This document shows, in pieces, positions 8,101-58,322 of a stretch of 64,000 bases of DNA. The DNA comes from a virus (Duplodnaviria; Caudoviricetes): positions 1-64,000 of IMG/VR virus record IMGVR_UViG_3300042481_000164; one strand, 5' to 3'. The first letter of the stretch is position 1. The number at the start of each line of letters is the position of its first letter. The translations under genes were made by a program, and so were the position numbers. Under the pieces are notes generated by a model. That model was not told where the DNA came from. It did not search any database and was given only the letters and a program-made list of their open reading frames with translations.

Positions 8101-10599
8101 AATGGTATTTATAGATCTTACAGTATTAATAATTTAAAAAGACCTGCTACAGTTACATTAAGAGTTAAAAATGGTGCTAATCAAAATGTAGGTCCTAAAC
8201 TTTTAAATATTGATGAATCATTAGTTACATTAGGTACATTAATACAAACAAAAGGTGTTTCTTCTCCAAGTTTTAAAGCAAATGATATAAGTGATCCTTT
8301 TAGTTTACCTATTGCTAGTCACTATGGAGCTCTTAAAGGTAGAGTAAGAAACCAATATGGACAGTTAGATTCAATTAAACAAATTACAATTTCTAATTGT
8401 GAACAAAAACTTACTGGATCTAACATACAATCAATAACTCCTGTTATATGTAATTCTGTTAGTAAAACTAGATTTGTAATTCCTAGAACACCAATATTTT
8501 TTGGAGGTGATACTTATGTAAATAGATACACAGAAAAAAATAACATGTGTTTCTTTTTTGATTGGTTATATAATGAACCAGATGGTTTTGAATATAATTA
8601 CTTTTTAAAGAGTATGATTCCTCATCCAAGATTTAGATTAAATAGTCAGTTATATGATGCTAGTAATTTAGCAGAGTTATTTACAGATTTTGCAACTTTT
8701 GCAACTAATGCACAAACTCCTGGTACTGGTCCTTTACCTTCAAATTTTTATAATCTTGATTATTTAGAAGGTGGTCAACAATATAATTACAATACTGATA
8801 CTGCTTCTAATTATCCTGGGTTCTTTATTTGTAGAGATTCTTACTTCTACTTAGCAGCATCTTCTATAAGAGATTTCTTTGTTGAATCTGAAGTACTACT
8901 AGATTTTAGAAAGCAAGCAGACAATATTGGTAATAAGTTTTATGATCCTTACAGATATACTAACTACCAAGAAATGTTTGACATGAATCCGGAAATTATG
9001 GGTAAGAATTCTTTTTACCAGTATGACTATTCATTAAGTGTTTCTAAATTATACAACCAGTATTTCTCATTAGGTTCTATACAAAGTAGATACTATGATC
9101 CAAATGTATCTGAGTTATGTTATACTTATTTTCCTAATAGAATTATCTATTCATTACCGCAACAGGATGAGGCAATTAAAGATAGTTGGATGGTTTATTT
9201 AGTAAACAACTATAAAACATTTAAGTCTCAAATCAGTGGAGTAAAACCTATAAACAAATCAGGTATCATTATTACTTTTAGAAATGATAGCCCTTTAATG
9301 TTCCAAGGTGTAGATACACTTAATACTGATTTAGGAACTAAAGTTACTATTGGAGATGGAGGATTATTTAGTCAACCTGCCCAAGCTGTAGCAAATTCTG
9401 ATAAGGCATATGAATACGGAGCTTCTCAAAACAGATTGTCTGTGATATCAACTCCAGTGGGTATATTCTATATATCTCAAGCAGCTGGTAAAATATTCTC
9501 ATATGGCTCAGGACTTCAGGAATTATCTCAGCAAGGGATGAAATGGTGGTTCACACTTTTCTTACCGTACAAATTAACAGTAGACTTTCCTTTATATCCA
9601 TATCAAGATAACCCGGTAGCTGGAATTGGATGTCAATCAGTATTTGATAATACTAACACTATCTTGTACTTCTGTAAGAAAGATTACCAATTAATTGATA
9701 AGTACAAAGGTAGAACTACATATGTTCCTCTAAGAGCAGATGGTACAGGTGATTATTTCATTGTGGATAAAAATGATGCTTTCCAATATAGATTAGGTGA
9801 TCCAACTATATTCAGAGATGCATCATGGACTGTAAGTTATGACCCTAAGAGTCAATTCTGGATTAGTTTCCATGACTGGCATCCAGACTTATTATTACCT
9901 ACTAAAGATGTATTTATATCTACAAAAGGTACTGGAGGTTGGAGACATAACTGGCTATGTGATTCTTACTGTAATTACTATGGTCAAGACTATGCCTGTG
10001 AAATAGATATTCCAATTGTGTCAGGTCAAACTATTACTACTACAAGATCTATTGAATACATAATGGAGGCTTATAGAAAATCTAGTAACTGTGTAGACTC
10101 ACACCATGTACTAGATTATAACTTTGATACAGCTGTTGTTTATAACTCTGAACAAGTTTCTGGATATTTAAATTTAAATTTATATCCTAAAAATGATTTA
10201 GTATTAGCAAGACAGTATCCAAAAGTAAATCTTAATAATAACTCTTTTGATATCTTATTCTCAAAAGAAGAAAACAAATATAGATTTAATCAGTTTTGGG
10301 ATATTACTAAAAACAGAGGTGAATTCCCAATAGGTGGAACATATCCTCCAATAGGACCTGTAGTACCTAATACTACATTGTTAATAGGTAACTATACAAA
10401 TGAAACAACATGGATTACTGAACCAGATGGTTTTAGAAGAGAGCTTAATGTAAATAATCTTGATTATACAAAACCAGAATTACAAAGAAAAAAGTTCAGA
10501 CATTACATGAGTTTTGTTAACTTAAAGAAAAATAAATCTGGTAACACCAATATTATTTTGAAGATCAGCAATAGTAAAAATGAAATTTCTCTAAGATAA
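5164..10599 (+). CDS. tail stabilisation / muzzle protein (P22 gp10-like, crAss-type)
   Basis: 1811 aa; N-terminal KGLNKD...W.HA.N; YMRDEVYSFFIRW; GGDTYVNRY; C-terminal WTVSYDP...WISFHDW, all typical of crAss-like tail stabilisation proteins. Confidence 0.7.
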   Translation: MSNMQDTSQNITDSFIKGLNKDSDPSYVTEGMWTHAVNMVNNSKTGRVGSLSNESSNYICFESGKFFPPNVTEKYVIGAIYLYSDKWVILTAGHNSLGQPVNSEIGLFEEENCVYRPIVIDPCLKFDKRYLISGTSREREDCTWQIYWADGLNPDRFLNIGNSKTWPSLDDYIFGGATGVNANYYLLLNSSTRILWPGVQWNETCKIINDCNICENVNTLDCEKIRLARLMTTPCLRLKLGQTGGTLANGTYFVVIAYLINGQKVTDYFSQSNYQFIYSPDDLEGSLDLEIEADRINFDEFELVIVSCTNQQTVAKRMGVYSTNTSAISFDQIDPSNISIPLEQLPLKTPVFETSDQIAELNTYLLRVGPKSKFDFNYQPLANMITTKWASVEYPAEYYMKGGNKTNYMRDEVYSFFIRWVYNTGDKTSSYHIPGRAPRQFTVPTTGTSFLETSTLNGDTNTLTTNEKVFEIYNTASADNNNSYIGTKTDDGGTVIATGDMGYWESTESYPDNRPDLWNPSSLCWTGAADASFDLCGKRIRHHKFPEDFINNSPTTDVIRFRSNPTPQTAVGNDYFIRLMGVFFTNIQLPKDNDGNDIPGIVGYEILRGSREGNKTIVAKGMVNNYRTYAIAGNNNYTGLYANYPFNTITPLSSTLGGNVQGESDPFIKAGLKASVPSDVISFHSPDTMFRTPFLSTPEFKLYGHIQGLSNQQFVTPSDHPKFKLLSDATVFVMIIFGLAEAIISGVGKRTTVQTGAAFQSLVGPDITGKEIGGGDIKGGSSGQESINGTGTATISNVNVTHTNIVGSPLKGGDISTKEDEYTDVSKNSVIANINSTQALITGYNAATGALADLATAGLVDVLGGIYQASATTNLSQKGAVYTAPELQTEIAKTNYLPGPLRVLALGQNIATYFSQGVDIALKIMYAVTSYKPFALQMKAYGFYSQMQPVGNNDIKRFTIEDAFYLRDNIQQMSKYLDNNGIYRSYSINNLKRPATVTLRVKNGANQNVGPKLLNIDESLVTLGTLIQTKGVSSPSFKANDISDPFSLPIASHYGALKGRVRNQYGQLDSIKQITISNCEQKLTGSNIQSITPVICNSVSKTRFVIPRTPIFFGGDTYVNRYTEKNNMCFFFDWLYNEPDGFEYNYFLKSMIPHPRFRLNSQLYDASNLAELFTDFATFATNAQTPGTGPLPSNFYNLDYLEGGQQYNYNTDTASNYPGFFICRDSYFYLAASSIRDFFVESEVLLDFRKQADNIGNKFYDPYRYTNYQEMFDMNPEIMGKNSFYQYDYSLSVSKLYNQYFSLGSIQSRYYDPNVSELCYTYFPNRIIYSLPQQDEAIKDSWMVYLVNNYKTFKSQISGVKPINKSGIIITFRNDSPLMFQGVDTLNTDLGTKVTIGDGGLFSQPAQAVANSDKAYEYGASQNRLSVISTPVGIFYISQAAGKIFSYGSGLQELSQQGMKWWFTLFLPYKLTVDFPLYPYQDNPVAGIGCQSVFDNTNTILYFCKKDYQLIDKYKGRTTYVPLRADGTGDYFIVDKNDAFQYRLGDPTIFRDASWTVSYDPKSQFWISFHDWHPDLLLPTKDVFISTKGTGGWRHNWLCDSYCNYYGQDYACEIDIPIVSGQTITTTRSIEYIMEAYRKSSNCVDSHHVLDYNFDTAVVYNSEQVSGYLNLNLYPKNDLVLARQYPKVNLNNNSFDILFSKEENKYRFNQFWDITKNRGEFPIGGTYPPIGPVVPNTTLLIGNYTNETTWITEPDGFRRELNVNNLDYTKPELQRKKFRHYMSFVNLKKNKSGNTNIILKISNSKNEISLR

Positions 10600-13500
10600 T
10601 GTATAATAAAAAGACTCTATCTAAAGCTTCAGCTGAGTTGGACAAAGCTAAAGCTCCTAAGAAACCTAAAGATATAATCACTGATCCAATGGGTCAGTGG
10701 AAGTATCCTGGTTTACCAACTAGAATTCCAAGTAATGATATTACTATGAAAGGAGTAGGTTATCCTGTGTTGGGTGTAGCTAATAATGGTCAAAGAAAGA
10801 TAATGCTTCCGGGAGTAGACTACACTTTTCCTGGAGCAGATTATGTAGATGAGTACCCACAGATGAGAAAGGGTGGTGTTAAAAAGAAAAAGACTAGAAG
10901 TCTTTCTGGTACTAATAAGATAATGCTTACACATCCTTTGCTTCAGAACTATAAGAATAAGGTATATGATCCAAATGTAGATTACTTTCAAGATGGAGGT
11001 ATGAAGACTGTAAAATCTAAAGATGGTACAGTAACTAATAGATTCATCAATGAAGCAGGAGATGAAGTTGTACAAGTAAAAACTAAAAATGGTAAGTACT
11101 TTGAAAAGGTTATCCCAAATAATAAATATATCAGCCCTCTTACTGGAAAACCTTATGTACCTATGCAAGGTGATGCAACTATTCCATCAGGATGGGAAGC
11201 TGAAGATAATACACTTGAGGATATTTCAGAATTTATAGACCCTACCGGAATTACATCATGGGATGATGTAGCAAGAGCTTATGATGAAAATGGTTTGTTT
11301 GATCCTAAAACTGGTTTAGAAATATTAGGTGCTCTTCCTCTTGTAGGTAAAATTGGTAAATCTGGAAAAATACTTGCTGGTGGAGAAAAACTTTTTCTTG
11401 ATGCTGTTAAGTATTTTGGATACAATGATAAAATAGCAAATGCCTATAAGGCATATAGAAAATTTGGTGGAAAAAATCTTGATGATGTTTTAGGTTTGAC
11501 AACAAAAGGTTTGACAAAACTTTCTCCAAAACTTAATCCTGAAAAATGGGAATCTAGCATGAAACTTATTAATGGTTTAAATAAATTTACTGAAGGTGCA
11601 AAGGCAACTAAACTACTTCCATATACTCCAAGTGGAGATACTCAAACAAAAAATGATGAGGATTATATAGAAACAGAACTTACAGATGATGAAATAGAAG
11701 AATACAGAAAAGGTGGATACATAGTAGAAGATATATCTGTACCAGAACTTACACAAGCTCAGAAAGGTAAAACTGTAAAAAACAAGGTGTTAGAAATATC
11801 TGACCCTAAAGAATTTGCTTATAGGAAAAAAATGTATAATGACAGTTTAGCTTTATATAACAAAGGACAAGAACAAAATAAAATATACAATGAATTTGTA
11901 AAATCTTACGGTGTTCCTAAAAAGAGTTTAGAAAAATACACTAACGCATTAGATGTTACTAATAAAATAAATCCTCAAATAGAACCTATTTTAGGAAAAA
12001 GCTTTTTTTACAACCACAACCCAGATGTGATTGCAGGCACAAATATTTCAGACAAAAGAGTAAAAGGAATAGACCCTGTAAACATATATAAAAAACCTAC
12101 GCAACCTGTAAAATTTAATAAAAATGCTGAGAAACCAGTTGTAATTGACAGAGAAAAAGTTGCTAATGAACCAATTGTAAATAAATCAAAAACTGTAGAT
12201 TCTAAAATTATTAATAAAATTAATACTACTAATTATCCGGAAGGTTATCAACCGTACTCTTTATATGGAAGAGTGCTAGATCCTGAGGTATACGGGTATG
12301 TTAAATCCATTAATGGAAAACCAGTAGAAGCAGCACAGTTTGGTGATACTTATGGTTATAAAGCAAAAATGGATGAGTATAAAAAATCTGGTAAGTATCC
12401 TTGGGTAAAACAAGAAGGTGGTTTAATTGAAGCACAGAATGGAATTATATCTACTAAAGAGCACACAGATAAAAAAGGAAATAAAACTATTAAGGTTCAA
12501 AAAGAAGATGGAACTGTTTATACAAAAGTTATAGGTAAGGATGGTAAAGTTTACAATAGAACCTTTGATCCTAAGAAAGATTCATGGGCAACAGATCAAA
12601 CAAAAAATTTATATTCTAAAGCACAAGGTTCAGGTAATTCAGATTGGTTTTGGGCACCAGCCGCTCTTACAGCAATAACAGGTGCACCATTATTAAAATC
12701 TGGAGCAACAGCTGTAGGTGAAGGAATAGTAGCAGGAGGAGATGCAATTGCTAATGCTACATTAAATAAACTTGGTAAAAATTCTTTTTTGCGAGCAATT
12801 AAAGCTGCTTCTAATACAGCTCCATCATGGTTGCCATCAGGAGCAACAGCAAATAATTTACTTACTGCTGCTGGTGCTACTTATGGAACAGCTGAATATT
12901 TTGATAAAAATAGTGATATAAGAAAATCATATTCTAAAGTTGCTAAAGATCCTACTTTAAGAAATGTAGCTGATGCAGTTTCAGAGACTGGGTCAAACAT
13001 GTTAAATTTTTCAGGTCTAAATGTTGGTAAAAATTTAAAGAATGCATCTAAGTATGCTACCAAAGTTGCTGATAAAGTTGCTCATGGTGAAACTATATTA
13101 CCTTATGCTTGGAAAAGCCGAGCACAAGGTGTAACATCAGATCAAGCACAAGAGTTATATCAGGCAATAAAAAATAAAAAACCACTTACAGAATGGCAAC
13201 ATGCTATGATTAGAGATTATGCATTTGACTCATCCCCATACACAGGTAGATGGGGTAATGTAGATAAGGTATTAAGATCTAAACTAAACAATTTAATTAA
13301 AAAAACAGGGATGGATGTTCCTGAAAATACAGTATTAATTAGAAGAATAAATTCTGAAGATCCAAAATTATTTAATTTAAAAAACAAAGTTGCAGATTTT
13401 GGTGATAGACCTGTTTCATTTTCTGCAGGTAGAGGTGCAGATTATAATGGACCAAAAGATAGAATTGTTCTTAGTGGAAGAAATGCAAAAAAAGCTAGTA

Positions 13501-13799
13501 AAAATTTTATAAAAAATGAGCATTATACAGATTATTCTGATGATGTTTTAAATAAAATACCTGAAGACTTGAGAGCTTCTTATAAAAGCTTGCCTGAACT
13601 TGTTTTACAAGAAAGAGAACTTATTGGTACAGATTTAAATTTAAGAAAAATTGGAAAAGTAAAAAATGAACTTGGGGGTCATGATTATATAATGAAACCT
13701 AAAGGTAAATTTTTTAAAGAAGGAGGTGTAGTTGCAGAATTATCAGATGATGAAATACAAGATTACATTAACCAAGGTTATATAGTAGAAGAAGTATAA
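10599..13799 (+). CDS. modular virion cargo protein with pre-toxin-like segment and C-terminal ADP-ribosyltransferase-like domain
   Basis: Cys-free; GG-delimited modules; DPTG...GALPLVGKIGK segment; R (VLIRRIN), S (PVSFS) and QERE motifs near the C-terminus. Confidence 0.6.
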   Translation: MYNKKTLSKASAELDKAKAPKKPKDIITDPMGQWKYPGLPTRIPSNDITMKGVGYPVLGVANNGQRKIMLPGVDYTFPGADYVDEYPQMRKGGVKKKKTRSLSGTNKIMLTHPLLQNYKNKVYDPNVDYFQDGGMKTVKSKDGTVTNRFINEAGDEVVQVKTKNGKYFEKVIPNNKYISPLTGKPYVPMQGDATIPSGWEAEDNTLEDISEFIDPTGITSWDDVARAYDENGLFDPKTGLEILGALPLVGKIGKSGKILAGGEKLFLDAVKYFGYNDKIANAYKAYRKFGGKNLDDVLGLTTKGLTKLSPKLNPEKWESSMKLINGLNKFTEGAKATKLLPYTPSGDTQTKNDEDYIETELTDDEIEEYRKGGYIVEDISVPELTQAQKGKTVKNKVLEISDPKEFAYRKKMYNDSLALYNKGQEQNKIYNEFVKSYGVPKKSLEKYTNALDVTNKINPQIEPILGKSFFYNHNPDVIAGTNISDKRVKGIDPVNIYKKPTQPVKFNKNAEKPVVIDREKVANEPIVNKSKTVDSKIINKINTTNYPEGYQPYSLYGRVLDPEVYGYVKSINGKPVEAAQFGDTYGYKAKMDEYKKSGKYPWVKQEGGLIEAQNGIISTKEHTDKKGNKTIKVQKEDGTVYTKVIGKDGKVYNRTFDPKKDSWATDQTKNLYSKAQGSGNSDWFWAPAALTAITGAPLLKSGATAVGEGIVAGGDAIANATLNKLGKNSFLRAIKAASNTAPSWLPSGATANNLLTAAGATYGTAEYFDKNSDIRKSYSKVAKDPTLRNVADAVSETGSNMLNFSGLNVGKNLKNASKYATKVADKVAHGETILPYAWKSRAQGVTSDQAQELYQAIKNKKPLTEWQHAMIRDYAFDSSPYTGRWGNVDKVLRSKLNNLIKKTGMDVPENTVLIRRINSEDPKLFNLKNKVADFGDRPVSFSAGRGADYNGPKDRIVLSGRNAKKASKNFIKNEHYTDYSDDVLNKIPEDLRASYKSLPELVLQERELIGTDLNLRKIGKVKNELGGHDYIMKPKGKFFKEGGVVAELSDDEIQDYINQGYIVEEV

Positions 13800-13842
13800 A
13801 CATAAGAAGTTTATTTAGTAAATTAAAATTTAGTATATTATT
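13797..13842 (+). promoter_or_regulatory. conserved intergenic element (candidate late promoter/operator)
   Basis: TAAAC-N7-GTTTA...AGTAAA...AAAATTTAGTATATTA; a similar element occurs at 19173. Confidence 0.45.
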
Positions 13843-13856
13843 TATATACCCAAGTT

Positions 13857-16379
13857 ATGGAAAAAAGAAAAGTACGTATTTATAAAGCTCATGATGGAGA
13901 AGGTAAATACATTAATAAAACTAAACAGTTTTTAGAAAAAGCTCAAATGGGTATGCAAACTCAAAATGAGTCAGCTGATGTTGAACAGCAACTACAAAGT
14001 GTAAAGTATTACATTAAGGGATTAAAAAATGAATCAGTAGATGATAATCAAATTCTTAAAGTATTAGTTTCAAAAGGATTAAGAAAAGATATTGCTACAG
14101 CTTTAATACTTCAAGTTTCAGAAGAACTAGAAGAGCAAGAAAGAAAGCTTGAGGAAGAGGATGAAGCTAATGCAGAAAATCAACCAAATGCTGAAGAAAC
14201 AGAAATGGGTCAAGAAGAAGAAGCTGATGTTGAAGAGCAACCAGAAGAAGAGGAAGATGAATCTGCTGGTTATAATGAGGCTATAGCTGAAGATGATGAT
14301 TACATGAATCCTAACATGGAATATGGATACGGTGGTAGAGTAGGAAAGAAAAAGTTTACCAACAATGTATTAAAATTACTAAAGAAACAAGAGGGTGGTG
14401 AAGAAAAAGCATTAGGTCAAGGTTATAGATTTGATAACATGAATAATGATGCTTCTACTAAAAAATCATCTTTCCTTGAAAAGATAAAAGAAACATCTAA
14501 TAAAGCTGCTGTTGATGAGCTTTATGAAAAAATGATGCAATCTAATAATCCTGAGTTGATTGAATCTGCAAATAAAATGGCAGAAGAAAGAAACAAACCT
14601 GCAGAAGGTACATTTGAAGAAGCTCAGTCAGGAGGTTTTATTGGAGGTGATGATCAACCGGATATGTTTATGTATGGTGGAACAGAGATGCCTTTCTATG
14701 AAGCAGATTTCCTACCGGAGGCACAAAAAGGTATTATATCAGGTAAAGCATATAACGCAAAAACAAGAGAAGAATACAAAGATTCTTTTGAAGGATTAGA
14801 TCCTTATGCTAAAACAGTTCACAAAAGAGGATTATTTGGAAGACCTAAGCAATGGACTGAATACTATACAAAAGGTAAAGGTTCTGCTAAATCATTGACA
14901 CCAGGTCAAGAAATTCAAGCAGCTTATGAAAAACAATTAGCAGAAAAGTCTCAAAATTTAAAACACGGTGTTGAAAAAGAAGTTTGGGATGATTTATCTG
15001 GTAAAGCAAAAAGAGCAATTAGAAGAGGAGAAAGACAATTAGGTAGAGAAGCTAGAAGAGGTGAAGATTCATTAGCAGAAGATGCTGCATTCAACAAAGG
15101 TGTTCATGCTAGATATAAATATGATACTGAAGAAGATTTAGCAAGAGATCTAAAAAGAAGTGATGATGCTTGGGATAAAGATGAATCTTTTGTTTCTGAT
15201 ATTGATAATTCTATTAAATCTCCGTATAAAGGTTTTGTGTATAATACTCATGATCCAAGAGGTAATAAATATGAAGAACCTAGACTTGTGGCTATGCCTG
15301 AATTATTACCATATGGTTTAAAAGAAGCTGATTTTGCTATATCAGAGATACCTCTTGATGATAATGTACCTATAGAAGAATTAAATGATATAGCAAATGA
15401 TTTTAAAGAACAAAAGCAAGCATATGATATTAGTAAACTAAATAATGAACACTATGTTACAAATCCTAAATTATTAGAGTTACAAAAATCTAGTAGTAGG
15501 AAAGAGTATAGTAACTTTAAAGCAGATCAACTTGAAAACATGTATAATACAAAAAAAGAATTTGCACCTCGTATGGTTGATCCTAAATTAAGTACATTAC
15601 ATCAATTTATGCCAGGTAAATCTAGAGCTACAAAAGAAGAAGAATCTATGAATAAAATTTTTGATCAGAGAGAAGCTGCTGAAGATGATGATCTTAAAAA
15701 TCAAAAATATGGATTTAGATATGGTGGTTTACCAAAAGCACAGACTGGACCTCCTGTAAAAAAACCTTCTGATCCAAGTACTAATACTGGTGATTTGTCA
15801 GGTATGTTAAAACCTGCTCAAAATCCTAACACTCTTTTAGGTGCTTCACAATCTTTTCCAGGAATGCCTTCAAATACTCCTGTCAATCCTGATGCTGGTA
15901 AAGTAAAAACTGTTACCATGGATCCTAATCAAACTAAAGGTCAAACAATTACTTCTGAAGATTTTGGAGATCCAAGTAATGATGATATAATAGCTGTTGA
16001 TAAACAAAAAGCTCCAAGTAACTTTGATGGTGAAGATGCTGTTAATAAATTTAATGCTGGGGCAACTGCTGTAACAGGATTCTTAAATAATCTTGATACT
16101 GCTAAACAGCAAAAAGAAATGTATGATAACAATTTTACTTCTGATAACATGTATGCTTCTACTAACACAAAAGACAGAGGTGATTATGTAGACTATGGTC
16201 AACAATTAGGTCAGTTTAGATATGATCAAATGGGTAGTGACACTAGCGGAAGATTTGCTTATGGTCAAGAAGGTGGTTATATGCAAGAGGGAGGATATGC
16301 TGAAGGAGATGAAGTATTCATGACTGATGAAGAATTAGAAGAATTCCTTGCTAATGGAGGAGATGTAGAATATTTATAA
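13857..16379 (+). CDS. acidic low-complexity virion cargo protein with repeated GG motifs
   Basis: 840 aa, no Cys, E/D-rich, many YGG/QEGG/AQxG motifs, C-terminal MTDEELEEFLANGGDVEYL tag. Confidence 0.55.
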   Translation: MEKRKVRIYKAHDGEGKYINKTKQFLEKAQMGMQTQNESADVEQQLQSVKYYIKGLKNESVDDNQILKVLVSKGLRKDIATALILQVSEELEEQERKLEEEDEANAENQPNAEETEMGQEEEADVEEQPEEEEDESAGYNEAIAEDDDYMNPNMEYGYGGRVGKKKFTNNVLKLLKKQEGGEEKALGQGYRFDNMNNDASTKKSSFLEKIKETSNKAAVDELYEKMMQSNNPELIESANKMAEERNKPAEGTFEEAQSGGFIGGDDQPDMFMYGGTEMPFYEADFLPEAQKGIISGKAYNAKTREEYKDSFEGLDPYAKTVHKRGLFGRPKQWTEYYTKGKGSAKSLTPGQEIQAAYEKQLAEKSQNLKHGVEKEVWDDLSGKAKRAIRRGERQLGREARRGEDSLAEDAAFNKGVHARYKYDTEEDLARDLKRSDDAWDKDESFVSDIDNSIKSPYKGFVYNTHDPRGNKYEEPRLVAMPELLPYGLKEADFAISEIPLDDNVPIEELNDIANDFKEQKQAYDISKLNNEHYVTNPKLLELQKSSSRKEYSNFKADQLENMYNTKKEFAPRMVDPKLSTLHQFMPGKSRATKEEESMNKIFDQREAAEDDDLKNQKYGFRYGGLPKAQTGPPVKKPSDPSTNTGDLSGMLKPAQNPNTLLGASQSFPGMPSNTPVNPDAGKVKTVTMDPNQTKGQTITSEDFGDPSNDDIIAVDKQKAPSNFDGEDAVNKFNAGATAVTGFLNNLDTAKQQKEMYDNNFTSDNMYASTNTKDRGDYVDYGQQLGQFRYDQMGSDTSGRFAYGQEGGYMQEGGYAEGDEVFMTDEELEEFLANGGDVEYL

Positions 16380-16388
16380 CTTTGAATT

Positions 16389-19175
16389 ATGATAAAGGTT
16401 AGAATTAAAAAAGTACCAAAAGCTAGAACAGGTTACCAAGTACAAGGTTCTTTAGCTAATGATGTACCAGCAATGGGTGGTGCAGATTACAATACTTACA
16501 TTGGTATGCCAAAGCCACAGCTAAGTAAATATATCACGGCTGTTCCTAGAGAAGAAGCTAATCTAGAAGCTGAAGGAGGTGAAACTGTATACGGTGACAT
16601 CAATGGTGATGGACTACCAGAACACAAAATCATCAAAGGCCCAAGACATGCTCAAGGAGGTGTACCATTAAACTTACCGGATGATACTTTTATATACAGT
16701 GACTTTAGAGGAATGAGTATTAAAGATCCTGAAATATTAGCAAATTTTGGTAAGAATTCTAAAGGTAAAAAAAGTTATACTCCAGCTACATTAGCAAAGC
16801 AGTATGATATTGATAAGTACAGAAAGATCTTACAAGATCCAAATTCTGATAGTATTGATGTTAAGACAGCTGAATTAATGATTGCTAATTTTAATAAAAA
16901 ATTAGCTGCTTTAGCATTAGCACAAGAGTCTAAAAAAGGTTTCCCTCAAGGTATTCCAGCAGTTGCTAAACCATATATGACTGAAAATAAATTAGAGGAA
17001 ACATCATTTATTGATCCATCTATAAAACAGTTTAGAAATCAAGTTGAACAAAAACTTAGTCAATCAGAGCAACAGAATGCAAATGAAACAGATAATTCAA
17101 ATACTGAATTAGAAGATGAAGAACAAGCTCAAGAAATGAATCAAGGTCAACCAGTAGCAATGCCAGAACAACAATTTGGTGGTATGTTTATGGGTGGTTT
17201 TGATTTTCCTTATACTGGTTTACCTGAAGCAGAATACGGAATGGCTATGGGTGCTAATCCAAGAAATTATATGGGTAGACCTAAATCTCCTATGTATGCT
17301 AGAGGAGGTGCTTTAAGAACATATCAAGGTGCTACAGGTGCTAGTACAACTGGTGCTACTGGTGGTGCTAATCCATCTGGTGATGCATTAGATATTTCAG
17401 GAATGGATCCTGAACAAGCTAGAAAAGCTCATTACATGTGGAAAAGAAAAAATCCAAATAAAGAACCATCAGTAACTAAAGATGGTAAAAAGATGAAATA
17501 CAAAGCACCAGATCCTCAAAAGGCGGTGACCATGGATAATTTAAAAGCAGTTAATGCAGCTGGTCAAAAGTTTTTAGAAACAGAATTAAAAAATCCTAAG
17601 TCTAAAATTAGAGCTGAATTAATCAAAGAAGCGCAAGCAGCTTATAATGATCCAAAAACAGGTGGTAGAATTGGTATAAGTAAATACAGAAAAGGTAAAA
17701 AATCTTTAAATGAAGATGAAATTATAAATGGTATTTTAAATGGTAAAAAAAGAAATGATACTATAAAAGAAGCTGGTATTAACATGGCTTATCTTGATAA
17801 TGGTGCAAAAGGTTTTGCAACATTTGATGATTTAAAAAGTAGAGGTCTTGTTAATGATCAAACTGAATATAATAAAATAAAAGCAGAATACACAGCTAAA
17901 AAATGGGATAGCAAAGAAAACATAGCAAAAACTTTAAATATAAAATTACCAACACCACAAGAAACTTTAGCTGAACAAGCTGGAGCACATGGTTTTGCCA
18001 GAATGAATTTAGAAAAAGCTAAAGGTACTTATAGTACTTTTAGTGATGATGAAACATATAACCTTGACACTATTTTAGGTAGAGAACAAAGTAGAGAAAC
18101 TAATACAGGTGGTGCAGATGAATCTGAGATGGCTAAATTATACGGTAAGGATTATGCTACATTATCACCAATTGAAGGTTATGCAGGTAATAGTGCATTA
18201 GCTCATGGTATAAATCCAAACATGGATGGCGGTACTTATGAAGAAGAAGCTGAAAAAGTTCAAGAAAAAGTTGAAGAAGGTAAAGATCCTCAAGAACCAT
18301 CAGAGGAAGAAGTAGTTGAAGGAGAAAAACCAGCTGAAGAACCAGCTGCTGAAGAACAACCTGTTGAACAACCTGAAGCTGAACCTGAGATGTGGTTACA
18401 AGACAAATTAAAAATTGCTGGAGCTGCTGTAGATTTATTTTCTGCTAAAAAGTATATGCCTATGGGAGCTGCAAGAGTAGACTTGCAAGCACCAAAACCT
18501 ACTTTTATGGACCCGACCAGAGAACTTGCTGCTAACGCAGAACAAGCAAATATTCAAACAGCTGGTATGGCTCAGTTTTCAGGACCACAAGCATTGTCAG
18601 CTAGATCATCATCTATTCAAGGACAAGGTGCAAAAAATGCTGCAGATGTATTAGCTAAATATAATAATCAAAATGTTGGTATTGCTAATCAATTTGAACA
18701 AGCAAATGCTTCTGTTAATAACCAAGAAGCTGCAATGAACCAAGCTAACCAACTTAAATTGTATGATCAAAATACAATAGCTAATCAACAATTTGATAAT
18801 AGTAAGAGAGCATTAAGAGGTAACTTGTTAAATCAATACACTAATGGTATTACTAATAAGTATAAGACAGATGCATTAAATCAAATCTATCCACAAATGA
18901 AAGTTGATGCTGGTGTTGGTGGTAAAGTTAAATATGATGAATCTAAAGCAAAACAAATCAAACCTACTACTTCTAAAACTATAAGTCAATATATTGCTGA
19001 ATGTAAACAAGAGGGTGTAGTTGAAGATAAAGTTATAGAGTGTGCAAAACTTAAACAACAAGCAGCTGGTTCTTCAGCTGATAGTAATGCTGCAGAAGCA
19101 TATCAAGCACAATTTGGTAACATGAAAAATGGAGGTTTTGTTTATAGTGATATTGTTTTCCCATTCATATTATAA
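16389..19175 (+). CDS. virion cargo/ejection protein
   Basis: ANLEAEGGETV...GPRHAQGGVP conserved-looking domain, GG motifs and a Q/N/A-rich helical C-terminus; lies upstream of the giant ejection genes. Confidence 0.55.
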   Translation: MIKVRIKKVPKARTGYQVQGSLANDVPAMGGADYNTYIGMPKPQLSKYITAVPREEANLEAEGGETVYGDINGDGLPEHKIIKGPRHAQGGVPLNLPDDTFIYSDFRGMSIKDPEILANFGKNSKGKKSYTPATLAKQYDIDKYRKILQDPNSDSIDVKTAELMIANFNKKLAALALAQESKKGFPQGIPAVAKPYMTENKLEETSFIDPSIKQFRNQVEQKLSQSEQQNANETDNSNTELEDEEQAQEMNQGQPVAMPEQQFGGMFMGGFDFPYTGLPEAEYGMAMGANPRNYMGRPKSPMYARGGALRTYQGATGASTTGATGGANPSGDALDISGMDPEQARKAHYMWKRKNPNKEPSVTKDGKKMKYKAPDPQKAVTMDNLKAVNAAGQKFLETELKNPKSKIRAELIKEAQAAYNDPKTGGRIGISKYRKGKKSLNEDEIINGILNGKKRNDTIKEAGINMAYLDNGAKGFATFDDLKSRGLVNDQTEYNKIKAEYTAKKWDSKENIAKTLNIKLPTPQETLAEQAGAHGFARMNLEKAKGTYSTFSDDETYNLDTILGREQSRETNTGGADESEMAKLYGKDYATLSPIEGYAGNSALAHGINPNMDGGTYEEEAEKVQEKVEEGKDPQEPSEEEVVEGEKPAEEPAAEEQPVEQPEAEPEMWLQDKLKIAGAAVDLFSAKKYMPMGAARVDLQAPKPTFMDPTRELAANAEQANIQTAGMAQFSGPQALSARSSSIQGQGAKNAADVLAKYNNQNVGIANQFEQANASVNNQEAAMNQANQLKLYDQNTIANQQFDNSKRALRGNLLNQYTNGITNKYKTDALNQIYPQMKVDAGVGGKVKYDESKAKQIKPTTSKTISQYIAECKQEGVVEDKVIECAKLKQQAAGSSADSNAAEAYQAQFGNMKNGGFVYSDIVFPFIL

Positions 19176-29495: not shown

Positions 29496-32400
29496 ATGAT
29501 TTGTTCACTTAATGAAACTCAACTTTCAGATTTAAGAAAAATAACATATAAAAAACTTTCCGGTCTTAAACCATCGGAAAGTTTTGATCTTGAAGGATTT
29601 ATAAAAGACATTTACAACAGAATTGAAAAAGCTGCAGGTGAAGAAAAAGCATTGCAGTATGCTCAAATCATTCCTCTTACAATTCATTATGTTCAGGGTG
29701 ATGATGAAATAAATAGCATATTAGCTAAAACTGATTTTAATCCTACAGTTATAATGCAGTTGAGAGCAGAATTTAATGACATTGATAATGTTAAAAAATA
29801 TGTAACTGAATTTGTAAGAAAGAAGTCTAAAAAAGAATTACAGGGTGAACTAGAGCATGAAAATTTTCAATTAGATAACATAGATGTTGTAGATCCAGAA
29901 CCTTCTGAATTAGAAAAATTAAGAAAGGCAAAGATTGAGTTTCCTAATGTTACAACATTTCAATATGGTGCTAAGAATGATCCTTCTAAACCAGAAACAC
30001 AAAAAGAAGAAGATGTTGTAACAGAAGATAAAAAAGTTTTTGAAAAGGTTATCAAAAAAATAATAAAAAGCTTTAATGAAAAAACTGCTGATCAAAACAA
30101 TCCTATAATTGATGGCACAGAAGTTTTTTTAAAAATGATGCCTGCAGATCAGTTAGAAGATAAACATAAATTAGCAGATGATAAAACTGAACAAGCTAAA
30201 TCTTTTAAAGGTGTTGTATCAGTTGTCACAGATGCTGAGGGTAATTACTTATACTTTGATGAAGCGGGTAACATAACAGATGAATCTAGAGGTGCTGTTG
30301 TTTATCAATATATTAGAAGACCATATTTATTAGAAGATGATTTAAACCAAAAGAAACCTGCTTTTTTTACAATTACAAAAAGTAGATCTAGTCTAGGTGT
30401 TAGAATATTTAAAAACACATTAGTTGCTGCTGCTAAAGTTGCTGAAAGACTTGGTTTACCTTCTAATATTGTTTTACAACAACAGAAAGAAACAATGAAT
30501 GGTGTTTATAATATGCGCAAGGATATTATAGATAATGGTAATTCATATGTTACACAAATTACTGGTGGTAGTTTTGGTATTGTAAGTTCAACAAGATCAA
30601 AAAGAATTAATAAAGATTTACAAGATACTGTAAAACTTACAAGAGAAAATATTATAGAAAGTAAGATTGTATCAAGTAAAGGTAAAAACACAGGATTTTT
30701 TCAATTTTTTACTAAAATTAATACTGAAAATTTTGGTGAACTTGAAATACCTATCAATATTCAGAGAGGTAACTTTGACCAAACACTTGCTAATAAAGTA
30801 GCTGATGTTATTACTACCAAAGCTACAAACATGGGAGACACACTTTCTGATTCAGAAAGGATTGCTTATTTTGAGTTGTTCTTAAACAATGATAAAAAGA
30901 AAAGTAAGAACAACATTTTCCTAAAGCAAGCACCAGGTGGACCACTTACATTAACAATAAATGATGAAGTAATTCAAGATGAAGCAATTTTCACTACTGA
31001 AACAAGAGATAAAATTGCAGAACACCTACTTAAAGCTATTAAGTATGGTACTGAAAAAACTGGACCAGCTAATGTAACTATAAATAATACTGCTAAAACT
31101 AAACAAACATACACTGATTATGAAATTTCAGGTAATACAATAAAACCTTTTGAAGCAGATTATATTGACTTTCAATTAAAATATGTAAAGCCTCAATTCA
31201 CAGAAGAAATAGCTGGAGCAGTAGCAGGATTTAATCCTTATTTGGGTTATAGTATTCCTGATAAATTTACAGAAGATCCAATTAACTTTTTTGATGTTGC
31301 AACAGATTCTGAAACATTACCAGCTGTTAGAAAAAAATCTACAGTTGAGCAAAATGAAGTTGCTAAAGAAGCTGAAAAAGAAAAAGCTGAAGTTGTTCAG
31401 AAAAAAAGAAATAGTGAAAAGAAAGAAACAGTAGATGAAATACAACAAACATTTACTCATAATTGGCTTAATGATTTAAATGTTACTGTTAAAGGTGAAC
31501 AAAAAACAATCATATCTAAAGATGAAGCTGATGGTTTTAACAGAAGTAAACAACTAGATAATTTCTTAGATAAGGTATTTACTACTAAAGAAGATAAAGC
31601 AAATGCTGAAGCTTGGTGGGCTAATTCTCCTTTAAATAAAAGCAGTAAATGGAATAAGAATTCTAAATTTAAGCATTTAGGATTAATATCATTAAATAGA
31701 ATAACAGAAGTAGTTAACTCAGATGCATTTGCAACATTTACTGGAACTGGTATTACTCTTTATGAAGCTGATGGAGGTACAGCTGTAGATTTGTATCATG
31801 AAGCATGGCACGGATTTTCACAATTATTCCTTACTGAAGAAGAAAAAATTAAACTTTATAATGATGTTAAGTCATATCCTAAATGGGCTAATAAATCTTT
31901 CTTTGATATTGAAGAAGACATAGCTGAAGACTTTAGAGATTATGCAAGAAGCAAAGGTAAAAAAGCTGCACCTAAAGGCTTCTTAGGTAATGTGTTTCAA
32001 AGAATTTATAAGTTTTTGGAAAACATGTTTGGTAAAGTAAGTAAGAAAGATCTTGCTACTAGACCAAGAGACATTGCATCTGTAAAAGAATTGTTTGATA
32101 ACCTATATCAAGCATCTGAAAAACCAGAGTTGTTACAAAACATGCAACCATCTACAGATAACATGATGTTTACTCAATTGAATAGATCAAAAGCAATTGT
32201 TTCTGTAAAAGATGTTGTAGCTAAATATGAACCTTTTGATTCTGCTGAGTCATTAAAAGTTGTAAGCTATTTAGATAGCATGATTCCAGAAATTTTTAAT
32301 GCTGTAAATGAACAAAAGAATACTTCTTCTTCACCAGTAAGAGTATTACAAACTAATGGAAATAGAAAACATTTATACAAAGTTTTAGAAAATAAAATAG

Positions 32401-40294: not shown

Positions 40295-43200
40295 ATGGTT
40301 TGTGAAGTTAAATTAAAGTCAATCAAGTTTTTAGAAGATGAAAAAGCTACTAATGATGTAAGAAAGATAATTGATATAGCAAAGTTTGATAAGCTCAACA
40401 GGAGTCTTACCAAACTTGCTGTTGATAAGTATGGTCTTGAGACTAATGGTGAAAATCTTTTTGAGAATAGAGAAATTAAAATCAAAGATGTAAGAACCTC
40501 TACATACAGAAGAGATACTTTTGTTACTATAAATAGAGCAGAGCCAAATGATCCTTTATTTGAGAAACTTCAAGAACTAAAAGAAAGGTATGATCAAAGA
40601 AATGAAATAGCTAAAAATGCTATTTTACCAGAAACTACTACACAAGCACAACCAAAATTCATTAGAGAAAAACAGGCTAATCCAGATTTTCCAGTTATTC
40701 CAATGGATTTAAATACTATTAATCAGCAGCAATCAAAAGTAGTTGCTGAAGCTATAGCATCTAAATTAGCTGCTAAAATGGGAGTAAACTATCATACGGT
40801 TACTTCTGAACAAGCTACACAAATGCTTAAAAACAATCCGGTACCATATAGAGGTGAGCCAGCTTTCTTTTATAATGGTGCAGTATTTATTGTTGGAGAC
40901 AATGTTAAACCAGGAATTCTCCTACATGAGTTTTCTCATCCATTACTTCAAGGTTTAAGAAAGACTAATGCAAAGTTGTTTAATAGCTTATTTGAACAAT
41001 TAGCAAAGACAGAGGAAGGTTTAGGTATAATTGATTATGTGTCTAGAGCATATCCAGAACTAGATGCTACTTCTGATTTATTCAAAGAAGAAGCATTAGC
41101 TTTTGCTTTACAATTAAAATCTTTAAATAAACTTGAGAAACAAATTGAGACAGAAGGTTTCCAGTCCTTTATAAGTAAGTTATTAGCTTCATTAAAACAG
41201 TTTTTACGTGATATATTTGGAAATGGTGTAAACTTGAAAAACCTAAATGAATCCACATCTCTTGATGAGTTATCAGAAATGCTACTTGATGATACTATGT
41301 TTGATTTTAGTGAAGTAAAGTTAACAGAGGATGATCTTGTTATGTATGTTAGAGACATTTTTGATGAAGCAGACAAACTTTCACAAAGTGTTAATGCTTC
41401 TACACTACAAAACATAGTTAATGAGGTTTATGCTAGTCATGTTGGTATTGTTAATCAGATTAAAGACTTTAAGGCTGATAAGGTAACCAAAGAAATGTTA
41501 CAAAGAACTTTGGATAAACAGGGAACAACAGAGTTTTTACCTGCTGTAAGAAAGATTCTTTCTGGATACCAAAACATAAACAATCTACAAGACTTGGTTA
41601 ATGAAGACTTAGAAGACTTAGACAGAAGTAAACAAATGGCCGGGGCTTTAATCAATAGTATTGATAGAATTAACTCATCCAGTGAGAATATTATCAAAGA
41701 ACTAAATAACATCTCCAAACAACCTAATTTAATCAATAATAGAAACACTATAGCTTTATTAGGTATATATAAAAATACATCTCAAGCTTGGTTAAATATT
41801 GTTGATGAAATCAATACAGCTTTAGATGAGTTAGACATTGACAAAAATAGTGAGTTCTATACATTAGTTACAGGTATTGTTAATAATGCAACAGTTATAA
41901 ACTCTAAGATTGCAGACATTTATAAAAGAGGTAATGTACAATTCTTTGTAGAAATTACAGGTTACATGAATGAGTTTGTAAACAAAGAATTAAAAGGTAA
42001 CCTTGGTATTGCATTAAAAAAAGCTTATCCTGAAGACCAGTTAGAAGCTGCGGTAGATGATTTGTATAATAAGATTGTTCAACAAAGATTGAGTAATGAG
42101 GACTTACAAAAAATGTATAGTAAAGGTGTACCAGCAAATATTCTTCAAGAATTTATTGACAAGTACAATAAATATATAGTTAGTAAAGACGATATAAAAG
42201 ATGCACTTACAGGACATGCTAAAGATGTAAGTTGGTTTAACAGATGGTTGGAATCTTATTCATCCAGTAATGATATTATAGTAGGGCCATTAGCAATGTT
42301 TATTCAAAATCAAAGAACTGAGGTAGAGACTAAAGTTTGGAGAGCTTCTCAAGATTTTAGAAGTAAACTTGCTGATTTATTACCTAAAGTAAATTTTAAT
42401 AAACTTAATCAGAATCAGATTTTAAATATGGTTTCTGGTAAAGACAAAATATTTTACTTTAACAAAAAAACTAAAGCTTATGAAGCCAAAGAAGTTTACA
42501 CATTTTTAAATGAGTTTGGAAATGGTTGGAGATTTGAGCTTGATAGACTAGAGTATGAGTATGAAGAAGCTAAAAAAACTGGTGATAAAGAAGCAATTGC
42601 TAAAGCTCTTGATGAATTAAGACAGTTTAATAAAGATTATATGTGGCAAGAATACACATTAGATTTTTATGAAAAAGATGATGTATTTAAAAATTCTGAA
42701 ATAGGGTCTTTAGCATATGCTGCAAGAAGATCCGCTCTTGATAATTACTTAAACTTGCAAAACAGTTTGCAAAAAGAGTATGAAAGATTTGAAAAATACA
42801 GTGAATTACAGGAAGCCTTTAGAAGTTACCAAAGATTATATTCTTTACAGAATGAAGATGGAACTGAGAAAGTTGATGATCCTGCAAAAGGTATTTATGA
42901 TAAATCTATTGCTGAGTTATTAATCAAACACAGACAAGAAACTAGTAAGTTCTATGAATGGGTTCCAATTACTAATTCATTAGATACTGCTTATAATGAG
43001 TTTATCACAGAGCTTCAGTCAAAAAATATTAAAAAAGGTACTAAAGAATATGACACTAAATTAAGAGAGTGGCAAAAACAAAACATTAGAGTTGTTTATT
43101 CTGAGAAATACTATGAGACAAGAACTAATTTATTTGAAAGACTTAAAGCAGTTCAAGATCAAATAAATTCACAATTAGGTACAACATACAATGTTTCTGA

Positions 43201-57011: not shown

Positions 57012-58322
57012 TTATAACTCTAACTTAATAACTTTGCCTGGTAATGCTGTGTTCAGATGTGATCTTTCAGATAATACCCACAATACTTTGCCTTTTGGCT
57101 TTATACTAGTGTAACACTCACCATCAGTAAAATATATCAAACTTGTATACTTTCTGATGTTAGCATCATAATACTCTAGGACGGGATCAAATTCAGTCCC
57201 ACCTCTACCTACAATGTTCAAATCATTCTTGCCTTTATAGGCTTCAATGCTTTTGATTTTGGTGTCACATTGTATGATAGTTATATCTACTCCAGTTTTA
57301 TGAATGTGTTGAATCTCATTCATGAATTCTTTAAGCTCATCATTACTTACTGAACCTGAAGTGTCAATGGCCAACAAAATATGCTGACGCATTTTAATTT
57401 TTAGACCTGGAAAAGCCGGAAATCTTTTGTTTTCCTTTCTCTGAAGTTTCTTGGTAAATACTTTTGTACTTGTACCAGTAAATCTTCTGACATAACCTTT
57501 CCAATCAAATTTTTGTTTTACAATTTGTTCTACTTTTATCAAATCTGACATCTCACCAGGAACAGTACCTCTTTTCTTTTCAGTCTGGTCTTTAGCTTCA
57601 GTAAGAATTCTTTGAATTTGGCGGTCCATAAGCTTTTGCTCTGTCTCACTAATATTATCAAATTCTTCCCATGTATCATGTTCAGAGCCTGTACCCATTC
57701 CTTGTTCCATTTGGTCAAGTAATTGGTCAAGGGCTTCAGAACCTGAACTACCTGTTTGCTCTTTTTGCTCCTGTGCATCCTTCAGCTTCTTATAGTAGTA
57801 TTTAGTACCTGCTTTTCTATCAAGGTTTAACTCATGATAATCATCAATAATTATACCTCTCATAGGTATTTTAGCTTCAATTTGTTTCAATTCTTCTTCC
57901 GTAGAACCAGAATCTTTGGCTTGTTTATATTCAGCCATTACAGTCTCTTTAAGAGCTGTATATTCATCTGTGGTATATTCACCACCGGGTAACCATGTAT
58001 CTTCTATATACTGGTTAATCTCCATGTCCATTGCAACATTGGCCATTCTCTTATCAGCATATCCGTGATAAGCTGTTAAGTGTCCAAAAGCAATATGTAA
58101 CAATTCATGTTTCATGATACCCAACCTATGTTGGTCTGTAAGTGTATTGACCCAGAAATTTTCATTTATGGCCAATTGGTAGTTAATACCATTCTTGCTT
58201 ACACCTGCTGTCGGAATATCATCTCTCCAATGCTTATTCAGCTGTATTAGAAAATAGCCATAATATGGCTCTTTAAGCATAAGGTCCTTGATGGCCTTGC
58301 TTAGTAAATCTACTTTATTCAT
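57012..58322 (-). CDS. metallopeptidase-vWA protein (DUF2201-like)
   Basis: KHELLHI HExxH; AIDTSGS MIDAS; GRGGTEF; YFTDGE. Confidence 0.85.
   Translation of the reverse strand: MNKVDLLSKAIKDLMLKEPYYGYFLIQLNKHWRDDIPTAGVSKNGINYQLAINENFWVNTLTDQHRLGIMKHELLHIAFGHLTAYHGYADKRMANVAMDMEINQYIEDTWLPGGEYTTDEYTALKETVMAEYKQAKDSGSTEEELKQIEAKIPMRGIIIDDYHELNLDRKAGTKYYYKKLKDAQEQKEQTGSSGSEALDQLLDQMEQGMGTGSEHDTWEEFDNISETEQKLMDRQIQRILTEAKDQTEKKRGTVPGEMSDLIKVEQIVKQKFDWKGYVRRFTGTSTKVFTKKLQRKENKRFPAFPGLKIKMRQHILLAIDTSGSVSNDELKEFMNEIQHIHKTGVDITIIQCDTKIKSIEAYKGKNDLNIVGRGGTEFDPVLEYYDANIRKYTSLIYFTDGECYTSIKPKGKVLWVLSERSHLNTALPGKVIKLEL

Follow-up and report, generated by a model that had tools for sequence, protein, structure and literature searches.

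Here, we report a conserved connector that punctuates three consecutive predicted virion cargo (ejection) proteins of a freshwater (lake-water) crAss-like phage. The three open reading frames (ORFs; 1066, 840 and 928 amino acids [aa], hereafter proteins 1 to 3) lie in a 64,000-nucleotide stretch of DNA (the window; positions 1 to 64,000 of IMG/VR virus record IMGVR_UViG_3300042481_000164), exactly where a sequence-only reading of the window had placed them. That reading had listed about 20 short glycine motifs and proposed that they form a polyprotein-processing or packaging code. Every one of the motifs was found in its place, but they are not separate sites: sequence comparison showed that a single conserved connector, present in a few copies, accounts for them as its glycine turns. 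This connector marks a large, undescribed family of polymorphic cargo proteins with a connector and end-tag grammar. We tentatively favor the explanation that the connectors stay uncut and serve a polymorphic cargo chain as hinges, couplers and docking end-tags.

In its minimal form, the connector consists of [YFM]-Q-x-G-G, a 3- to 16-aa spacer and (L)P-x-A-Q-x-G. The full form (about 47 aa) adds an acidic amphipathic helix and a short strand to this, in the order ..Q-D-G-G turn, short strand, acidic helix of the type LTDDEIEEYRKGG, strand YIVED and linker ISVPEL..AQKG. Three of the sub-motifs fell within one unit of about 47 aa in 116 of the 120 homologues of the 1066-aa protein, and collapsed connectors without the helix (GG, spacer, (L)P-x-A-Q-x-G) occurred both here and in relatives. 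Internal copies of the unit extended to AQxG (hidden Markov model [HMM] positions 44 to 47), and the last copy formed the protein end, cut off just past the second strand (HMM positions 30 to 33) in 91/116 homologues and 94/113 representatives; the natural C-terminus of these helix-tag copies was 5 to 8 residues beyond the glycines. A profile search of 1.84 billion proteins recovered the unit in at least 841 clusters (50% identity), usually with 2 to 4 copies per protein. The unit had no Pfam or PHROG match and no published description in the literature searched, PDB sequence and profile searches with protein 3, A3 and the unit alignment returned nothing significant, and a viral-contig scan with a protein of the unit family (P0158) gave no match.

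Enrichment over a glycine-rich background was borne out by 2,000 composition-preserving shuffles of proteins 1 to 3. AQxG occurred 9 times (1.0 expected), [FYM]xxGG 11 times (2.0 expected) and GG with an A[QE]xG in the next 16 aa 5 times (0.27 expected), counts that none of the shuffles equaled, and the remaining 34,348 aa of the genome held 3 AQxG, 16 [FYM]xxGG and zero GG-A[QE]xG pairs. Family-wide, 211 GG..[AK]QxG pairs were counted (17 expected), with preferred spacers of 3 to 4, 8, 13 and 16 aa. The consensus at border GGs was [YFM]-Q-[DK]-G-G, conserved on the upstream side only. The synonymous codons of the unit were no more conserved than those of the N-domain (0.63 versus 0.59), and the level at which selection works is therefore the peptide, not the DNA; the idea of a recombination hot spot was dropped on the same grounds.

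As had been claimed for the 1066-aa protein, the motifs stood at module borders: when protein 1 was aligned with 120 homologues (BLAST), 37 alignments ended at residue 134 (FQDGG), and more than 50 started at residues 351 to 360 (unit start). Among 1,257 recurrent homology breakpoints in 234 family proteins, 43% fell within 3 aa of a GG, compared with 6.5% by chance, and the controls KK, EE, NG, SG and GK showed little or no enrichment. Orthologues of proteins 2 and 3 carried extra modules of 90 to 180 aa inserted exactly between duplicated motif copies (90 to 180 aa between GGYMQxGG copies of protein 2 in loci L001 and L002; about 150 aa between AQYGMxMGGYDLP copies of protein 3 in loci L003 and L005). 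The cassettes between connectors varied among relatives and included SET, VanY, SLT, two lysozyme families and PG_binding. What stands of the proposed code is thus a real and conserved one that delimits cargo modules, among them exchangeable effector and peptidoglycan-hydrolase cassettes, and the architecture is of a polymorphic, polyvalent type. The SET (lysine methyltransferase) domain lay between connectors in 6/52 unit-bearing relatives (P0124 to P0236), and its predicted presence as cargo of a phage particle is unusual.

Gene borders also fell within the connector, the upstream protein ending in helix, G(G) and acidic strand and the downstream protein opening with a basic strand and then P-K-A-Q/R-x-G. 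Synteny and end motifs were common to about 20 related IMG/VR loci, which shared the order muzzle, helix-tag-ended protein, protein 2 type (basic K/R-V-R-I-Y-K strand and A-Q-x-G at the start, helix tag at the end) and protein 3 type (M-K-V-R-I-K-K-x-P-Q-A-R-T-G at the start, G-G-F-x-Y-x-D..P-F-I-L at the end). Proteins 2 and 3 were fused in at least six junction types among 38 longer relatives; all fused forms had lost both the helix tag and the basic start and kept a minimal GG..x-T-G connector, so the cargo block behaves like one modular chain that can be encoded by one or several genes. A complex prediction for the N-terminus of protein 2 with the C-terminal tag of protein 1 scored 0.14, a value that speaks neither for nor against a contact.

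In AlphaFold2 (AF2) models, most motif sites lay in linkers with a predicted local distance difference test (pLDDT) score of <50 beside better-ordered modules; two helix tags scored 53 to 65, and the sites at residues 61 to 64 and 304 to 307 of protein 3 were not separately resolved. A reading of hydrophobic-x-x-G-G as a helix C-cap (Schellman) motif was rejected because it fits the helix tags only, the other sites having no modeled upstream helix.

The features of the window are listed in the table below. In protein 1, which was modeled poorly overall (mean pLDDT, 43.6), the N-domain contained a beta core (aa 40 to 88; pLDDT, 77 to 84) and was 50 to 98% identical across proteins of 600 to 1,800 aa; 544 homologues shared this N-domain and the unit, with differing middle modules. 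The full internal connector (84 bits against the unit HMM) was aligned with 16 relatives, and the C-terminal tag scored 39 bits over HMM positions 4 to 32. Residues 593 to 617, around the minimal connector KQEGG-LIE-AQNG, had a pLDDT of <50 with strands from residue 616, and the module downstream was preceded by a full unit in relatives. Two four-stranded beta-meanders (aa 136 to 172, positions 11004 to 11114; aa 616 to 656, positions 12444 to 12566) were alike, each directly after a connector and each with a K-x-D-G-x-x-Y-x-K-V-I-like repeat. Positions 13180 to 13710 of the same gene encoded a segment with a pLDDT of <50 and no Pfam match.

The motif positions of protein 2 were kept in orthologues at 33 to 64% identity, and its C-terminus bore a divergent, truncated copy of the unit. 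Residues V6, R7, Y9, K10 and Q30 of its start were invariant in 15 orthologues, and the insertion that relatives carry upstream of the YGYGG/KQEGG region bore an FQDGG mark of its own. Protein 3 was modeled better (mean pLDDT, 62.7), with modules 332 to 620 and 670 to 890 mostly confident (block means largely 63 to 93, with short dips) and the connector region at aa 261 to 307 below 50 between two ordered parts; a Foldseek search of the model against PDB gave no match at an E value of ≤0.001. Its end (G-G-F-x-Y-x-D..P-F-I-L and stop) was conserved in orthologues and retained in fused forms. The N-terminal part of about 225 aa (positions 16389 to 17060) was 68 to 100% identical in the best 120 of 2,135 homologues, with E-A-N-L-E-A-E-G-G-E and G-x-R-H-x-x-G-G-V-P-L-N-L-P-D-D invariant, and residues 1 to 64 scored a pLDDT of about 30 despite this extreme conservation.

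Table. Coordinates of the muzzle gene, the three predicted cargo genes, their connectors and end features, and the zincin-like motif (positions in the window)
Feature	Position	Strand	Remarks
Muzzle protein gene, 1811 aa	5164..10599	+	Pfam PF25731 crAss_MUZ, E 2.4e-23; directly 5' of cargo block
Cargo protein 1 (P0001), 1066 aa	10599..13799	+	Modular, polymorphic family
Protein 1, N-terminal domain, aa 1-134	10599..11000	+	Closed by MRKGG (10863-10877) and FQDGG (10986-11000)
Protein 1, full internal connector, aa 349-394	11643..11780	+	Strand, acidic helix ending YRKGG, strand, ISVPEL..AQKG linker
Protein 1, minimal connector KQEGG-LIE-AQNG, aa 604-615	12408..12443	+	Precedes beta-meander module
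Protein 1, C-terminal truncated unit (tag), aa 1039-1066	13713..13796	+	FKEGG, acidic helix, G-Y-I-V-E-E-V, stop
Cargo protein 2 (P0002), 840 aa	13857..16379	+	Orthologues in related loci
Protein 2, basic N-terminal start, aa 1-32	13857..13952	+	KVRIYK strand-hairpin ending AQMG
Protein 2, YGYGG and KQEGG marks, aa 156-181	14322..14399	+	Y-K-K-G-G and K-Q-E-G-G in orthologues
Protein 2, clustered connector AQSGG..FMYGG..LPEAQKG, aa 256-292	14622..14732	+	Motif scan and orthologue comparison
Protein 2, minimal connector FRYGG-LPK-AQTG, aa 620-631	15714..15749	+	x-Y-G-G-L-P-K-A-Q-x-G in 7/9 orthologues
Protein 2, GQEGG-YMQEGG marks and C-terminal helix tag, aa 803-840	16263..16376	+	Weak unit-HMM match at 809-838
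Cargo protein 3 (P0003), 928 aa	16389..19175	+	2135 homologues of its N-domain
Protein 3, basic N-terminal start KVRIKK and VPKARTG, aa 1-15	16389..16433	+	Kept in 14 orthologues
Protein 3, Met/aromatic-Gly connector region, aa 261-307	17169..17309	+	QQFGG, MFMGG, LPEAEYG, YARGG
Protein 3, C-terminal AQFG..MKNGG and hydrophobic end F-V-Y-S-D-I-V-F-P-F-I-L	19107..19172	+	
HEAWH of zincin-like module, residue 768 of 3598-aa giant RNA-polymerase cargo protein	31797..31811	+	

The virus record was 120,766 bases long (GC content, about 31%) and was rated complete by CheckV. It carried crassvirus hallmarks: the muzzle gene in the window and, at other places in the genome, genes for the crassvirus major capsid and ring proteins. 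The gene for protein 1 started at position 10599, directly 3' of the muzzle gene, an order also found in related loci, and proteins 1 to 3 were followed by a 1019-aa protein and then by giants of 2398, 3598 and 1977 aa. Pfam and PHROG gave no match for proteins 1 to 3, nor did tblastn find one in 50,697 records of cultured or deposited phages. By position, they correspond to cargo proteins C1 and C2 of phage crAss001, and their assignment as virion cargo is a prediction for which the match of the N-domain core to gp040 of Cellulophaga phage phi4:1 is indirect evidence.

Under the explanation that we tentatively favor, the connectors would separate independently folding, exchangeable modules in three consecutive cargo proteins. 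Left uncut, they would be flexible hinges that keep the modules autonomous, and this autonomy would let the cargo be packed, threaded partly unfolded through the portal and tail, and refolded module by module. The connectors would also be permissive joints where cassettes (those of relatives include lysozyme, SLT, VanY and SET) are gained, lost or swapped, and the helix tags at protein ends may either anchor the proteins at docking sites in the particle or link successive cargo proteins to each other. Several points weigh against this explanation. Generic hinges need no conserved [YFM]-Q-x-G-G, and a motif that survives at 33% identity with upstream-only conservation suggests that a partner or an enzyme recognizes it. 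Tag and basic start are not strictly coupled, for three locus types without the upstream helix tag still kept the basic start in the next gene; internal units retained the helix although the chain there is covalent. AF2 gave no structural model of the connector of useful confidence, and the comparison with crAss001 is one of analogy only because no homology to its gp45 was detected.

That the motifs are cleavage sites for a maturation protease, as the sequence-only reading had proposed, found no direct support, and we consider a processing code rather unlikely. In such a code, the ..Q-x-G-G and ..A-Q-x-G marks would be cut in the capsid or after ejection, freeing the modules as effectors; the zincin-like module in the neighboring giant RNA-polymerase cargo protein would be the likely enzyme, the peptides of spacers and tags would be excised, the helix tags and basic starts would be targeting propeptides, and split and fused genes would give the same mature products. 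The sites do look like GG-type cleavage sites, they are placed at module borders and, for the most part, in linkers predicted to be disordered, and the upstream-only conservation at border GGs would fit a protease. Fused and split junctions, moreover, differ only between the GG mark and the next A-Q/R-x-G mark, and the family includes modules with different likely action sites (peptidoglycan hydrolases, SET-type enzymes). On the other side, tandem marks within 10 to 25 aa would be redundant for a protease, and the glycines of the helix tags lie only those 5 to 8 residues before natural C-termini. By analogy, the crAss001 counterpart also speaks against cutting: the AFGGWL motif at residues 425 to 430 lies inside the resolved portal-bound domain of C1 and so is uncut in this virion, the only one of a crassvirus that has been solved.

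No prohead protease, C48, C5, C39, S77 or S78 family was found in the complete genome: clan CE (PF02902 and PF00770) had no match at an E value of ≤1, C39 peptidase (PF03412) and prohead protease (PF04586 and PF03420) had no match, and proteome scans with Pfam and PHROG included no maturation protease among the best 25 families listed for each. Cysteine is absent from proteins 1 and 2, and protein 3 showed no structural match to a protease. Export through a double-glycine leader and C39 was also rejected, since there is no C39 peptidase and the motifs are internal or C-terminal instead of a 15- to 30-aa N-terminal leader. A ClpS-like adaptor is encoded outside the window (genome positions 74239 to 74424, minus strand; PF02617; E value, 3.9e-13). 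The idea that cut ends are N-degrons for a phage ClpS was discarded because the residue after border GGs was not enriched for F, Y, W or L.

The only candidate for a processing enzyme is the zincin-like module. Its H, E and H and a downstream E-E-x-x-A-E-x-F-R were at least 95% conserved in 80 relatives, down to 31% identity, and it has a counterpart in crAss001 gp47, but it had no match in Pfam, and MPTase-PolyVal (PF18818) had none in the genome. Processing of polyvalent proteins into units by such zincin-like peptidase domains is proposed and P1 DdrB is described as processed, yet the N4 virion RNA polymerase, which has such a domain, is packaged unprocessed (Iyer, Burroughs, Anand, de Souza, Aravind 2017, PMC5512222). 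The giant cargo proteins have three HExxH motifs in all: besides HEAWH, the 3598-aa protein has HEVKH (residue 3190, about position 39063) and the 1977-aa protein HEFSH (residue 211, about position 40925). A second HExxH gave only a weak DUF4344 match (E value, 0.052). A 436-aa ORF at positions 57012 to 58322 (minus strand) had an HELLH motif. The proteome scan listed a member of DUF2201_N (putative metallopeptidase) and a member of DUF2201 (VWA-like), with the ORFs not specified; should the ORF at 57012 to 58322 be one of them, it belongs to the early/replication arm and not to the virion genes. The strong form of a processing code, a true polyprotein-like cargo block in which both connector marks are cut by the neighboring zincin module and the tags are excised, seems to us unlikely. 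To our knowledge, crAss-like phages have no recognized maturation protease; if this form is true, their cargo proteins would for the first time have a defined cleavage code and a protease to go with it.

Unlikely, too, in our judgment, is a pure docking or packaging code, in which the portal, tail-barrel rings, muzzle or capsid interior would offer repeated binding sites for aromatic-Q-x-G-G and the helix tags as short linear motifs. Such binding would load the cargo into the procapsid and fix its order, each cassette carrying its own motif copy. The position of the tag at the extreme C-terminus in more than 80% of the inspected family proteins (the 91/116 and 94/113 given above) and the conservation of the motif as peptide, not DNA, would suit it, tandem copies would add avidity, and the docked segments of crAss001 C1 (residues 214 to 245 and 425 to 552) by analogy begin at or just after aromatic-GG motifs. 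The motifs, however, lie in predicted disordered linkers and not in docked helices, fused forms lose the tag without a visible substitute, and there is no homology to the crAss001 segments. Lastly, that the motifs have no function and are by-products of glycine-rich low-complexity linkers or recombination scars is very improbable: proteins 1 to 3 are indeed richer in glycine (8.0 to 8.5%) than most of the proteome, but composition-preserving shuffles never matched the observed counts, motif positions were kept in orthologues at 33 to 50% identity, the family-wide excess of pairs was 211 against 17, and codon-level identity was not elevated.

In abundance, crAss-like phages rank with the foremost of known viruses, and they carry several megadaltons of internal cargo that has to be loaded, ordered and ejected. 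The connector grammar provides a sequence handle for cargo proteins in uncultured phages, a map of where effector cassettes start and end, and two testable models (uncut hinge/coupler versus zincin-mediated processing).

Among known systems, C1 (gp45) and C2 (gp46) of crAss001 are stored in the tail and capsid and are thought to be ejected first (PMC10172136; PDB 7QOG; Bayfield et al. 2023), and no processing was reported in the virion paper (PMC10172136). Like proteins 1 to 3, they are large, glycine-rich, mostly unstructured proteins encoded directly after the muzzle gene, and gp45 has aromatic-GG motifs at residues 209, 263, 332, 427 and 562, at or after two of which its resolved segments on the ring proteins (214 to 245) and the portal (425 to 552) start. 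Unlike proteins 1 to 3, gp45 and gp46 have neither a 47-aa unit nor a helix tag nor an A-Q-x-G mark, and gp45 has a predicted transmembrane helix, whereas the proteins here have no hydrophobic 19-aa window above 1.2. No homology to gp45 or gp46 was detected by tblastn, and hhalign of A3 and A7 against gp45 gave a probability of <1%. The gp45 gene (L119, 11988 to 14516) encodes 12.6% glycine and 21 GG dipeptides.

Clan CE proteases (adenovirus protease and African swine fever virus pS273R) process polyproteins at Gly-Gly-X; compared with the adenoviral consensus, the hydrophobic residue here is one position further from the glycines. Prohead proteases trim packaged proteins, as described for T4 gp21 and phiKZ/SPN3US (PMC10052503). 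Both cases resemble ours in a short glycine motif that recurs in internal virion proteins and in specificity on the upstream side, but no such protease family was found in this genome, and cleavage here is only hypothetical. Polymorphic toxins reportedly carry demarcation motifs (VENN in CdiA and DPxGL in Rhs, said to have been described by Zhang et al. in 2012) and share with the cargo family an N-terminal part that is conserved, C-terminal cassettes that vary and a short conserved motif exactly at the switch point. The family differs from them in being phage virion cargo and in having several connectors per protein, also at gene borders and the C-terminus. Downstream lie the genes for the next cargo proteins; immunity genes were not seen, but no search was aimed at them.

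Polyvalent proteins likewise string unrelated effector and lysozyme/DD-peptidase domains in one virion-delivered polypeptide, and the adjoining N4-like RNA polymerase with its putative zincin-like modules may be a further likeness; the passages on them in PMC5512222 describe domains and no conserved inter-domain connector or end tag. A further parallel is phi4:1 gp040, a virion protein by tandem mass spectrometry (NC_021788). The N-domain core gave a profile match to gp040 residues 27 to 88, ending at FQAGG (probability, 81%; E value, 1.3e-5); gp040 has no 47-aa unit, A-Q-x-G marks or helix tag, but it bears five more [FYL]-[QK]-x-G-G marks, one of them 3 aa from the C-terminus, and a muzzle-like gene lies two genes upstream of it. 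Phage phi4:1 gp040 is the nearest cultured handle on this cargo family.

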